Origin: Escherichia coli
GTDB taxonomy: Bacteria; Pseudomonadota; Gammaproteobacteria; Enterobacterales; Enterobacteriaceae
Assembly: GCF_003991155.1 (NCBI RefSeq)
Contig: NZ_CP031293.1
Direction: 5' to 3' (one strand)
DNA: 64,000 nucleotides
Shown here piece by piece: positions 42,001 through 45,000 of this stretch. Every line of letters starts with the position of its first letter. Positions within the stretch are counted from its first letter, which is position 1. The position numbers are program-made.

Positions 42001-45000
42001 AAACGGATACAGCCAGACTGTCGGTGCACTGCAGACAGAAACGGGAGCGCACATTCAGCTTGATAGCGGTAGTGTACTAACGGTCAGCGGCACGCAGCGT
42101 CAGCCGGGGGATGATAATGGTGGCATCATTGAAAACAATGTGCTGACCGGAGACGGTACGCTGGCTGTCACGGGCAGCAATCTGACGGTACATGGCACCA
42201 ATATCGGGTTTACCGGTAATGCCAGCCTTACCCAGGGGGCGCTGGTTGAAATGAACGGCGCACAGGGGCTGGGAAGCCAGGGCTCCATCAGCTTTGAAAG
42301 CCTTAATGATCGCCTGGCGATTGATATCGCCGACGGTAGCGGAGTCAGCAGTAACCTGAGTAAATCGCTTTCCGGAAAAGGTTCAGTGGGCATACTGAAC
42401 ACCACTGATCTGACACTTTCCGGAGATAACCGTAATTTCAGCGGTGAATTCCGTGTGCAGAAAGATGCTGCTCTGCGGGCTTCAGATGAAAAACACCTGG
42501 GCACCGGGCTGATTGACAGTGATGGTGTCACCTGGCTTACCGCCAGTGGAAACTGGTTACTGAAGAATGATATTACTGGCTCCGGCGCTCTGGTGAAACA
42601 GGGGGCGGGTAATCTGATCATTAATCATGAGCTGACTTATACCGGTGATACCACGGTTGAGAATGGCGTTCTGATTGTCGGTGATGATTCAGTCACCCGT
42701 GCCGCTGGTGCGACGTTGTCAGGCTCCAAAAACATTCATGTTCTTAATGGCGGCACACTGAGTGGGCTGGGGACCGTTTCGGGTCAGGTTAATAACCAGG
42801 GAACACTGGCATCACTAAATGCTCTCTCAGGTTATGAAACGGCAGAGGCGGGCAATTTTACCGTTGGCTCACTGACCAATACTGGCGTCATTCGTCTGGC
42901 CGGTGGTAAGACAGGAAATACCCTGACCGTAAATGGCGATTACACTGGTGGCGGTACGTTAATTATCAATACCGTGCTGGGGGATGATACTTCTGCCACT
43001 GACAAACTGATTGTCACGGGTAACACCTCCGGTGATACCGGCGTGGTGGTGAATAATGTCCGGGGCCAGGGGGCTCAGACCGCTGACGGCATTGAGATTG
43101 TGCATGTCGGTGGGCAATCTGACGGTAACTTCAGACTGCAGAACCGTGCGGTGGCAGGGGCATGGGAATATTTCCTGCATAAAGGTAATGCGGGTGGTAC
43201 TGACGGTAACTGGTATCTGCGTTCTGAATTGCCGCCAGAACCACAACCGCAGCCGCAGCCACAACCGCAGCCACAGCCACACCCACACCCCACGCCGGAT
43301 AAACCTGTACAGAAGGTCTATCGTCCGGAAGCGGGCTCTTATATTGCGAACATAGCGGCAGCCAACACGCTGTTCAACATCAGAATGCACGATCGTGAGG
43401 GGGAAACTTACTATACCGATGTGTTTACTGGTGAGAAGAAAGCAACAAGTATGTGGATGCGTCATATCGGCGGTCATAATCGCTGGAAGGACAGCAGTTC
43501 ACAGCTGAATACGCAAAGTAACCGTTATGTTGTGCAACTGGGTGGCAGCATTGCGCAATGGACTGACGGTCAGGACCGTCTGCAACTGGGGATTATGGCC
43601 GGTTATGGAAATGAGAAGAGTTCCACGACATCCTCGCTTTCGGGATATAAATCTAAAGGTGCGATCAATGGATACAGCACCGGTTTATACGGAACGTGGC
43701 AGCAGAATGACGGTAATGACAACGGGGCTTATGTCGATACCTGGATCCAGTACGGATGGTTTAATAATACCGTTAATGGTGAAAAACTGGCTGCGGAGTC
43801 CTGGAAATCCCGTGGATTTACCGGTTCAGTGGAAGCGGGTTATACCTTTAAAGCCGGCGAATTTACCGGTAGCCAGGGTAGTCACTATGACTGGTATATT
43901 CAGCCGCAGTCCCAGATCACGTGGATGAATGTAAGAGCCAGTGAGCATACGGAGAAGAATGGCACGAAAGTTCAGCTCAGCGGAGACGGTAATATCCAGA
44001 GTCGTCTGGGCGTCAGAACTTACCTGAAAGGTAAGAGTGCGTCTGATGATAATAAGGCGCATCAGTTCGAGCCATTTGTGGAAGTTAACTGGATCCATAA
44101 TACACGGAGCTGGGGTGTCAAAATGGATAATACGGCACTCAGTCAGGACGGAGCTACAAATATTGCTGAAGTCAAAACGGGTGTTCAGGGTAAATTGTCA
44201 GATAACCTGAATGTCTGGGGCAATGTTGGTGTTCAGGCTGGCGATAAAGGGTACAGTGATGCCCAGGCAATGCTGGGTATTAAATATATATTCTAATCAC
44301 ACAGTGGCAGGAGGGGACCTCCTGCCACCTCAGGGTTGTCATAATGAGTTCTGTAATGAAATTTTCTGTTGTTAATGCAGTAGTGCTGCTGTTGCTGATT
44401 GTACTTACTGGTGTTTTTTATATGAAAAAGTCAAAAGAAATTGCAGTTGTTAATATCGATGCTATTTATAATCAGTCTGCCGCCGGAGACATGGCCAGAA
44501 AACATCTGAATGAGGTTAAGAGTATTCTTGAAAAAGGATATGAGGATGCGCAAAAAGTATTCGCAGATAACGCGAATAAAGAGGCGCTGCTTCTTGATGC
44601 CAGACAAAAACTGGAACGACAATATGTTATTGAGGAAAATAGCGCAAAAATGGTGTTATCCCGTGCGATAGATAATGCTATAGGCACATGGAGAAAAGAC
44701 AATCCTAAAAATATTGCCGTATTGTCTTCAGGTGTTGTGCTTGCGCATAACGAGTCAGCTGATATCACCAAAGAAGTCATGACTCTGGTTGAAAAAGAAA
44801 ATCTGGTTTTTAATAAATTACCCAAAGTGGAAGTGCACAATAAGAATGAAGAGAAACCAGAACAAAGTAAGTAATCACTAGATTCTGACGATTTCCAGAA
44901 GGGAGATTCAGCAGGCCAGCATCTGTAATCATTCAGATTTGCTGGCTTGCTGCTAAATATGGTTGCTGAGAAAAATAGCAGGCCAGTAATTTATTCAGAT

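Follow-up and report, generated by a model that had tools for sequence, protein, structure and literature searches.

A divergent Skp-fold protein encoded next to the giant autotransporter UpaE in the Escherichia coli argW island

Classical autotransporters are usually described with general envelope factors only (Sec, SurA, Skp, DegP, BAM, and TAM), and the periplasmic chaperone Skp acts on autotransporters such as EspP and IcsA. Helpers that are linked by gene position have been described for the trimeric, type Vc autotransporters: a 2021 review of folding control in type 5 secretion (PMC8151025) and a 2026 preprint name only SadB and TpgA, both type Vc, and the preprint, which surveys trimeric autotransporters genome-wide, considers further helpers unlikely. 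Here, we describe ORF176, a 176-codon open reading frame (ORF) that directly follows the giant type Va autotransporter gene upaE in a 64,000-nt stretch of Escherichia coli DNA (contig NZ_CP031293.1, assembly GCF_003991155.1; hereafter, the window). ORF176 is a real gene under purifying selection, its product is homologous to Skp in sequence and predicted fold, and its relatives are genetically linked to giant type Va autotransporters across Enterobacterales. On balance, and with moderate confidence, we favor the reading that ORF176 is a divergent, inner-membrane-tethered cognate holdase for UpaE, which is read through from the phase-variable ipuS promoter upstream.

Two described proteins share the fold of ORF176. 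Skp itself (HlpA/OmpH; PF03938; PDB 1SG2, 1U2M) is homologous to ORF176 end to end; both combine a small β body with a long α-helical hairpin "tentacle," and both carry an N-terminal xIAxVN motif directly after the export signal and a DIT motif toward the C-terminus. Skp has a cleaved signal peptide, whereas ORF176 has an apparent uncleaved anchor and its relatives are often lipoproteins. The genes also differ in location, as ORF176 lies in the argW island between upaE and a tRNA-Arg gene, not in the bamA-skp-lpxD cluster, and is accessory. The second protein is SkpA of the type 9 secretion system (T9SS; PDB 8GL8), a Skp-fold protein recruited to one dedicated secretion pathway and one of the top structural matches to ORF176 (probability 1.00). 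SkpA comes from Bacteroidota and a different secretion system, its identity to ORF176 is about 9–10%, and membership in a stable translocon is a feature of SkpA.

The two gene-linked helpers resemble ORF176 in other respects. SadB is an inner-membrane trimeric lipoprotein that improves display of the trimeric autotransporter SadA, which bears an extended signal peptide (ESPR), but is not absolutely required for it (PMC3953254, PMC8151025). Both SadB and ORF176 are small proteins encoded beside a large ESPR-bearing type V adhesin in Enterobacterales, and the periplasmic face of the inner membrane is the site of SadB and, putatively, of ORF176. SadB serves a type Vc adhesin and is not described as a member of the Skp/OmpH family, while ORF176 accompanies a type Va adhesin and has a Skp fold; the likeness is a functional analogy only. 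In Acinetobacter, TpgA is co-transcribed along with AtaA, a trimeric autotransporter, and TpgA loss lowers the amount of adhesin at the surface (PMC8151025; 2026 preprint). TpgA and ORF176 are both periplasmic proteins encoded with an autotransporter in the same operon (presumably so for ORF176), but TpgA is monomeric, acts at the outer membrane on a type Vc protein, and is built from BamE-like and OmpA-like peptidoglycan-binding domains, with no Skp fold.

An earlier note on this DNA, made from the sequence alone, had proposed that ORF176 is a Skp-like chaperone for the long passenger upstream and that it had not been functionally characterized. The latter matches the literature that we searched, which yielded no description of ORF176 or of any autotransporter-linked Skp paralogue. 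The Skp fold and family are already known, and RefSeq labels many alleles "OmpH family." What appears to be undescribed in the searched literature is that giant type Va autotransporters and this Skp clade form a conserved pair, along with the membrane-tethering signals of the clade and its divergence from Skp in charge, arm length, and C-terminus.

Skp homology, fold, and divergence of ORF176

ORF176 (44344..44874, + strand) begins with ATG and encodes 176 amino acids plus a stop, as the earlier note had it; some RefSeq records use an alternative start at 44356. The translation, MSSVMKFSVVNAVVLLLLIVLTGVFYMKKSKEIAVVNIDAIYNQ...DITKEVMTLVEKENLVFNKLPKVEVHNKNEEKPEQSK, includes the N-terminal hydrophobic segment FSVVNAVVLLLLIVLTGVFY (about residues 7–26) and the two motifs that had been read as parallel to Skp, IAVVNIDAIYNQ (residues 33–44) and DITKEVMTLVEK (residues 140–151). 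The gene is carried by 252 of 5426 complete E. coli genomes. Since it is intact in 250 of the 252, and since the ratio of nonsynonymous to synonymous substitution rates (dN/dS) stays between 0.13 and 0.34 (0.19, 0.34, 0.13, and 0.33 against alleles of 97%, 76%, 63%, and 42% amino acid identity), ORF176 is a real gene under purifying selection and not a chance ORF. It evolves faster than the UpaE barrel, which has a dN/dS of about 0.09–0.10 in the two comparisons that are diverged enough yet unsaturated. Strain C11 carries pseudogenized copies, and strain C10 has a copy of 45% coverage. RefSeq naming is inconsistent, with the 100% allele mostly called "hypothetical protein" and other alleles "membrane protein" or "OmpH family outer membrane protein," because the score lies close to the naming threshold. 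A scan of species-representative genomes with the close-relative profile found no locus, and thus the UpaE-type skp-like gene is accessory only; a second representative-genome scan, for the Citrobacter-type clade, found five loci.

The relationship to Skp emerges from the family of ORF176 homologs. A word-indexed search returned only relatives of at least 63% identity, and the wider family comes from an exhaustive representative search with a close-relative profile, which gave 218 clusters (50% identity level) at E ≤ 1e-3; the family alignment includes 123 full-length members. PF03938 is matched by 87 of these 123 at E ≤ 1e-3 and by 115 at E ≤ 0.1, with a best value of 2.5e-14. The family profile matches the solved chains 9nhx (4.2e-7), 4kqt (2e-6), and E. 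coli Skp (1sg2, 2.2e-4; 1u2m, 3.5e-4). In hhalign, the family profile and E. coli Skp (aligned end to end) match with 95.4% probability and an E value of 1.9e-8, over a span that runs from just past the export signal to the Skp C-terminus and ends at ORF176 residue 149. BLASTP of ORF176 against E. coli Skp aligned 15 residues at E 0.055, pairing EIAVVNIDAIYNQSA with KIAIVNMGSLFQQVA. NCBIfam returned only noise matches for ORF176 (RseP, SctR), PADLOC returned no match, and a PDB sequence search with a profile of seven close relatives found no solved Skp chain. DUF1993, matched by the single sequence at E 0.004, was dropped as a candidate, since its signal gained nothing from the wider family: 3 of 123 members reach E ≤ 0.1.

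The AlphaFold2 model built on the family alignment has a predicted local distance difference test (pLDDT) score of 90.5 and a predicted template modeling (pTM) score of 0.75. It orders a helix (residues 9–27), a strand (32–36), two long helices (46–72 and 79–119), a second strand (123–128), and a final helix (142–150). The ten best Foldseek matches in the PDB are all Skp/OmpH proteins at probabilities of 0.99–1.00, and the next match has an E value of 2.7; the top matches include E. coli Skp, Caulobacter CC_1914, and the T9SS translocon SkpA (entries 1sg2, 1u2m, 4kqt, and 8gl8). The structure prediction that the earlier note had called for thus gives Skp topology at the level of the protomer. 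Altogether, the family profile, hhalign, and AlphaFold2/Foldseek support the Skp/OmpH-like identity proposed for ORF176, and its homology to Skp with a Skp protomer fold is established on the evidence of sequence and model.

ORF176 departs from housekeeping Skp at both ends. The N-terminal hydrophobic helix of the AlphaFold2 model (codons 9–27; 44368..44424, + strand) has no A-x-A cleavage motif and no lipobox, and the same holds for the 19–20 residue hydrophobic helix of the closest relatives, P0027 and P0028. A weak L-T-G cleavage site is possible in ORF176, and the signal may be cleaved after G23. Across the family, the N-termini are signals of the signal peptidase I type, signals of the lipoprotein type, or anchors of a similar kind. 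Lipoproteins make up about half of the wider family, and 25 of 72 lipobox matches have Asp directly after the lipid-modified Cys (a few of the matches are false positives of the regular expression); lipoprotein-type N-termini are found in P0033, P0057, P0061, P0063, P0076, P0078, P0093, P0107, P0109, P0116, P0119, P0127, P0128, P0130, P0135, P0141, and others. Asp at position +2 is the classical inner-membrane retention signal in E. coli, though rules differ in other taxa. The anchor and the Asp+2 lipoprotein are thus two independent solutions that point to inner-membrane tethering. In ORF176, the N-terminus probably serves as a signal-anchor that stays uncleaved and holds the Skp-like domain at the periplasmic face of the inner membrane. 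Judging by its N-terminal hydrophobic segment, ORF176 is exported. A cytoplasmic C-terminal domain was considered, as K28, K29, and K31 follow the hydrophobic segment, and was judged unlikely; all homologs carry export signals.

At the other end, the consensus of the 123-sequence alignment includes an FxxLPxV motif (codons 155–162, VFNKLPKV; 44806..44829, + strand) that is specific to the family. The motif sits past the end of E. coli Skp and is followed by a charged, low-confidence tail. F156, L159, P160, and V162 are invariant among close relatives, and residues 151–160 reach a pLDDT of 97 in the AlphaFold2 model. FxxLPxV could be a docking motif.

Linkage to giant autotransporters and the upaE-ORF176 junction

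Among the complete E. coli genomes, the 3' end of upaE is also found in 252, and the two co-occur in 252 of 252. Within E. coli this is expected because the island is inherited as a block, so the informative evidence comes from diverged loci. There, 12 of 16 resolved lineages have a family member that adjoins a giant type Va autotransporter; the lineages are a sample and not a census, and the linked ones span at least seven genera and include several plasmids. The autotransporter is directly upstream at loci L004, L008, L013, L014, L015, L016, L017, L020, L022, L027/28, and L030. The partner autotransporters belong to at least three subtypes (AIDA/ECSE_1600/MisL-like, BigA-like, and S6-peptidase), in two gene arrangements. 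For comparison, autotransporters make up an estimated fraction of one percent of enterobacterial genes. Judged from these gene neighborhoods, the pairing goes far beyond chance and argues for a functional one. Since the skp-like proteins of the linked lineages are only 25–42% identical to ORF176, it points to selection on the pairing rather than recent common descent. The co-occurrence that the earlier note had looked to as a check on its proposal is therefore borne out, both in E. coli and in deeply diverged lineages.

The loci closest to upaE share more than the pair. In Salmonella enterica diarizonae, where the skp-like protein has 63% identity to ORF176, the gene order is the same: recombinase, GerE regulator, 2632-aa autotransporter, and skp-like gene. 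The E. coli IncY P1-like phage-plasmid pAPEC201602 (L014, 2795–12543) carries a 76%-identical skp-like gene 48 nt past a UpaE-like autotransporter of ~2637 aa, in which a frameshift leaves two ORFs, one of 917 and one of 1720 aa. This copy lies downstream of PapI/FaeA- and PapB-type regulators and not of the ipuS invertase switch; thus, the same module is found on a mobile replicon under a different phase-variation system. In E. coli strain C11, it is a different, 2193-aa autotransporter in another island that precedes the pseudogenized skp-like copy. P0027 (42% identity) is encoded, in plasmid-like surroundings, 58 nt past an autotransporter with 73% identity to UpaE over the 495 C-terminal residues.

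More distant pairs follow the same layout with other autotransporters. On two Yersinia ruckeri plasmids, the skp-like gene follows an AIDA-like autotransporter of 1675 aa in one and an S6-peptidase autotransporter in the other. P0057 is encoded 48 nt past a 2244-aa ESPR autotransporter, and the skp-like gene of Klebsiella aerogenes follows an autotransporter of >2000 aa. BigA-type autotransporters are the partners at two loci, and the autotransporter directly upstream has 2363 aa in Citrobacter sp. 18056 and 2253 aa in Rahnella rivi. A Citrobacter enshiensis(-type) contig (L017) has two tandem skp-like genes (1098–1676 and 1733–2179; E values of 4.5e-50 and 2.5e-37 against the family hidden Markov model, HMM) after one AIDA/ECSE_1600-type autotransporter. 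Buttiauxella (L024/L025/L029) has the sole non-tandem arrangement that we saw: the skp-like gene (10001–10582, +) is divergent from an ESPR/PATR autotransporter (1–9356, −) of at least 4488–4515 aa, which is cut off by the locus end, with ~645 bp between the two genes. One further skp-like gene lies at a contig edge. As a side observation, a contig titled Chryseobacterium sp. 18061 (L027) and the one from Citrobacter sp. 18056 (L028) gave identical BLAST and HMM results for both the autotransporter and skp-like ORFs, and the former is probably enterobacterial contamination or a co-culture mislabel.

The junction between upaE and ORF176 is also conserved in its layout. The gap measures 47 nt (44297–44343) and holds a GC-rich stem-loop without a U-tract, just as the earlier note described. 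The stem-loop (44304..44328, + strand) has an 11-bp stem and a 3-nt loop, GTGGCAGGAGG-GGA-CCTCCTGCCAC, followed by CTCAGGGTTGTCATAATG; it begins 8 nt past the upaE stop and leaves 15 nt to the ORF176 start. The surrounding 76 nt have a folding energy of −24.3 kcal/mol, with z = −1.9 relative to shuffled sequences. A GC-rich hairpin without a U-run lies directly past the autotransporter stop in nearly every tandem pair; 11 pairs besides upaE-ORF176 have one at this position, including L003 (14089–14113), L014 (11961–11985), L006 (~9757–9783), L004 (~5693–5719), L013 (~7756–7778), L016 (~11916–11932), L017 (~877–908), L020 (~1042–1065), L022 (~4188–4209), and L027 (~9944–9965); the sole exception is L008, where no stable hairpin was found at the junction. 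Most autotransporter/skp-like pairs have gaps of 24–60 nt, and the downstream start is usually 15–30 nt beyond the hairpin. The stem sequence is conserved among UpaE-type loci, with a compensatory double change in strain C11 (GGAGG/CCTCC to GTAGG/CCTAC), and the distant loci L004, L013, L016, L017, L020, L022, L027, and L030 have unrelated stem sequences. Because its position is conserved while its sequence is not, this suggests that the intercistronic hairpin is a functional element, e.g. an attenuator or a stabilizer of the mRNA 3' end.

These features bear on how ORF176 is transcribed. A Rho-independent terminator between the two genes was rejected, as the hairpin has no U-run and was not called by a terminator scan, and a promoter within the gap was rejected as well, since the 47 nt contain no promoter-like site on the + strand. 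A weak promoter-like site does occur at 44024–44053, inside the 3' end of upaE, and may be a promoter for ORF176. Given the lack of room for a promoter in the gap and a hairpin without a U-tract, the likeliest source of ORF176 transcripts is read-through from the ipuS promoter, which would make ORF176 the last of three genes in an ipuR-upaE-ORF176 unit. What was published as the "two-gene operon" ipuR-upaE probably includes a third gene.

A proposed helper for UpaE and the alternatives

As a cognate holdase, ORF176 would be made only when the adhesin is made, i.e. with the ipuS switch ON. It would bind the 2639-residue acidic UpaE, by its passenger or its β-domain, as the polypeptide emerges from SecYEG. 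The ESPR signal peptide would delay UpaE release at the inner membrane, as the ESPR is thought to prolong inner-membrane residence (PMC8151025). ORF176 would meanwhile keep UpaE unfolded and protected until the C-terminal β-domain is handed to BAM/TAM. The result would be a higher yield of surface adhesin and limited envelope stress, with ORF176 acting as a helper and not as an essential factor. We infer the chaperone function and the dedication to UpaE from homology and from the linkage of the genes; a shared transcript with upaE, a tether in the inner membrane, assembly into a trimer, and a holdase activity directed at the autotransporter are likewise putative.

Several observations weigh against this proposal. 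On its own, ORF176 scores below significance against Pfam OmpH (PF03938; E 0.011, 16.3 bits, residues 33–118), so the profile match that the earlier note anticipated is found for the family and not for the single sequence. The basic charge of Skp is considered important for substrate electrostatics; mature ORF176 has an isoelectric point (pI) of 7.05 and a net charge of 0, compared to a pI of 9.52 and a net charge of +5 for E. coli Skp, and its autotransporter-linked relatives range from pI 5.2 to 8.0. The helical-hairpin arms are ~18 residues shorter than those of Skp, and thus a shallower cavity is expected, which may not encapsulate a barrel as Skp does. When three copies were joined by 25-residue Gly-Ser linkers and modeled with a 19-row alignment, the best model reached a pTM of 0.56 and a pLDDT of 74.7, the other four had pLDDT values of 64–65, and the linked-trimer models contain an extra short strand in each copy. 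In four lineages (P0032, P0119, P0028, and Cedecea; loci L005, L009-11, L019, and L026), no autotransporter is adjacent to the skp-like gene.

Published work on the locus also counts against a strict requirement for ORF176. Both studies, one of which is PMC6083910, call ipuR-upaE a two-gene operon, with reverse transcription quantitative PCR and 5' RACE performed on ipuR and upaE only. The plasmid pUpaE contains upaE only, as the reverse primer ends at the upaE stop codon, and in the island-free K-12 strain MS427, it produces a full-length, 271-kDa UpaE located at the surface, along with biofilm formation and extracellular matrix binding (PMC6083910). Because K-12 displays UpaE from upaE alone, ORF176 can be dispensed with, at least when UpaE is over-expressed in cells that have the housekeeping chaperones Skp, SurA, and DegP. 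With functional UpaE displayed by a strain that lacks the island, ORF176 is therefore at most an aid to efficiency or stress relief, or else a factor that counts only when expression is at native levels or in certain hosts.

Display by K-12 with housekeeping chaperones only would also suit a general-purpose extra Skp on a mobile module, which would add periplasmic holdase capacity and buffer σE/Cpx stress each time a giant outer membrane protein is turned on, without any specificity for UpaE, and make the adhesin portable between hosts. The clear Skp fold and homology fit this alternative, as do the several subtypes of partner autotransporters and the family members that have no adjacent autotransporter. 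However, the divergence in charge, arm length, N-terminal anchoring, and C-terminal motif looks like specialization and not dosage, and adjacency to an autotransporter is kept in both tandem and divergent arrangements despite identities of 25–42%. We regard a general-purpose Skp as unlikely, though it deserves to be kept in mind.

A second alternative is that ORF176 uses the Skp fold for something other than holding: it would be an inner-membrane-tethered adaptor or scaffold that docks the nascent autotransporter to TAM/BAM, peptidoglycan, or DegP, or that times its release. The match at probability 1.00 to T9SS SkpA in the SprA translocon complex 8gl8 is consistent with such a role, and the conserved C-terminal FxxLPxV, which is absent from Skp, could provide the docking site; the neutral charge, the short arms, and the membrane anchor or Asp+2 lipoprotein signals in the family point the same way. 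Yet the helical-hairpin arms, which form the substrate cavity in Skp, are retained with high model confidence, ORF176 has no extra domain and no identified partner, and besides the autotransporter, no gene (e.g. for TAM or BAM) recurs in the neighborhoods. We find this alternative rather improbable. Finally, a hitch-hiking or decaying gene without a role, tied to upaE by block inheritance of the argW island, would account for the 252/252 linkage in E. coli, the damaged copies in C11 and C10, and the frequent "hypothetical protein" label in RefSeq, but it is strongly disfavored, to the point of being very hard to credit, by a dN/dS of 0.13–0.34 out to 42% identity, by intact genes in 250 of 252 genomes, and by a pairing that turns up again between unrelated flanking sequences on plasmids, a phage-plasmid, and chromosomes from at least seven genera.

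Returning to the cognate holdase, a broader proposal can be put forward, though only tentatively. ORF176 and its relatives may form a distinct Skp-fold clade, tethered to the inner membrane by a signal-anchor or an Asp+2 lipoprotein signal, that co-evolved with giant ESPR type Va autotransporters and serves them as a cognate helper in the periplasm. Type Va secretion would thereby have its first dedicated accessory factor, acting at the hand-over from Sec to BAM/TAM and phase-varied with its client in E. coli. If so, a conserved Skp paralogue that accompanies giant type Va adhesins throughout Enterobacterales, whether on a chromosome, a plasmid, or a phage-plasmid, would be a missing secretion component, and it would open the way to direct experiments on how polypeptides of 2,000 to >4,500 residues survive in the periplasm. 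In uropathogenic E. coli, UpaE is a phase-variable adhesin, and Nissle 1917 has the locus too. If ORF176 is the third gene of the operon, its contribution is unaddressed by the existing ipuR/upaE mutants and the upaE-only plasmid. Co-expression of the cognate skp-like gene might also improve autotransporter-based surface display of long passengers.

The argW island in the window

The segment of the window around ORF176 is the E. coli argW-associated island with the phase-variable ipuS switch and the adhesin UpaE, which Battaglioli et al. 2018 described (PMC6083910). In order, the genes are dsdC, ipuB, ipuA, ipuR, upaE, ORF176, argW, yfdC, mlaA, fadL, fadI, and fadJ. Two tyrosine-type DNA invertases are encoded by ipuB (33467..34036, − strand) and ipuA (34785..35414, + strand; full length, 209 aa). 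The invertible promoter element ipuS (35355..35647, no strand assigned) was located from its inverted repeats and the description in PMC6083910. Its arms, at 35355–35372 and 35630–35647, include TTTTGAC/GTCAAAA and are separated by 257 nt; the left arm lies inside the 3' end of ipuA, and the element matches the published ipuS. Since full-length ipuA is defined as phase OFF in PMC6083910, the window sequence is in the phase-OFF orientation. The first gene of the phase-variable transcription unit (PMC6083910) is ipuR (35732..36352, + strand), which encodes a LuxR/GerE-type regulator.

The second gene, upaE (36377..44296, + strand), encodes a type Va autotransporter adhesin of the AIDA type, 2639 aa long, that bears an ESPR extended signal peptide at its N-terminus (MNKIYKVIWNHTTQKWDVVSELTS), and RefSeq names this ORF "phase-variable autotransporter adhesin UpaE." The barrel region can be aligned to barrels of autotransporters with matches to NCBIfam autotransporter models, and the passenger is acidic (pI 4.6). 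Ahead of the β-domain is a Pro-Gln/Pro-His repeat linker (window ~43220–43290, around ELPPEPQPQPQPQPQPQPHPHPTPDKP). Compared to the 2639 aa of UpaE in the window, the Nissle 1917 protein has 2649 aa, and over the linker the alignment of several genomes breaks into two pieces; the linker may be the source of the length difference between alleles.

The island ends with ORF176 and is bounded by argW, a tRNA-Arg (CCT) gene (45312..45386, − strand). Beyond this boundary, between mlaA and fadL, a 415-aa "hypothetical protein" ORF (47622–48869, − strand) occupies, in this strain type, an interval that is without it in Nissle 1917.

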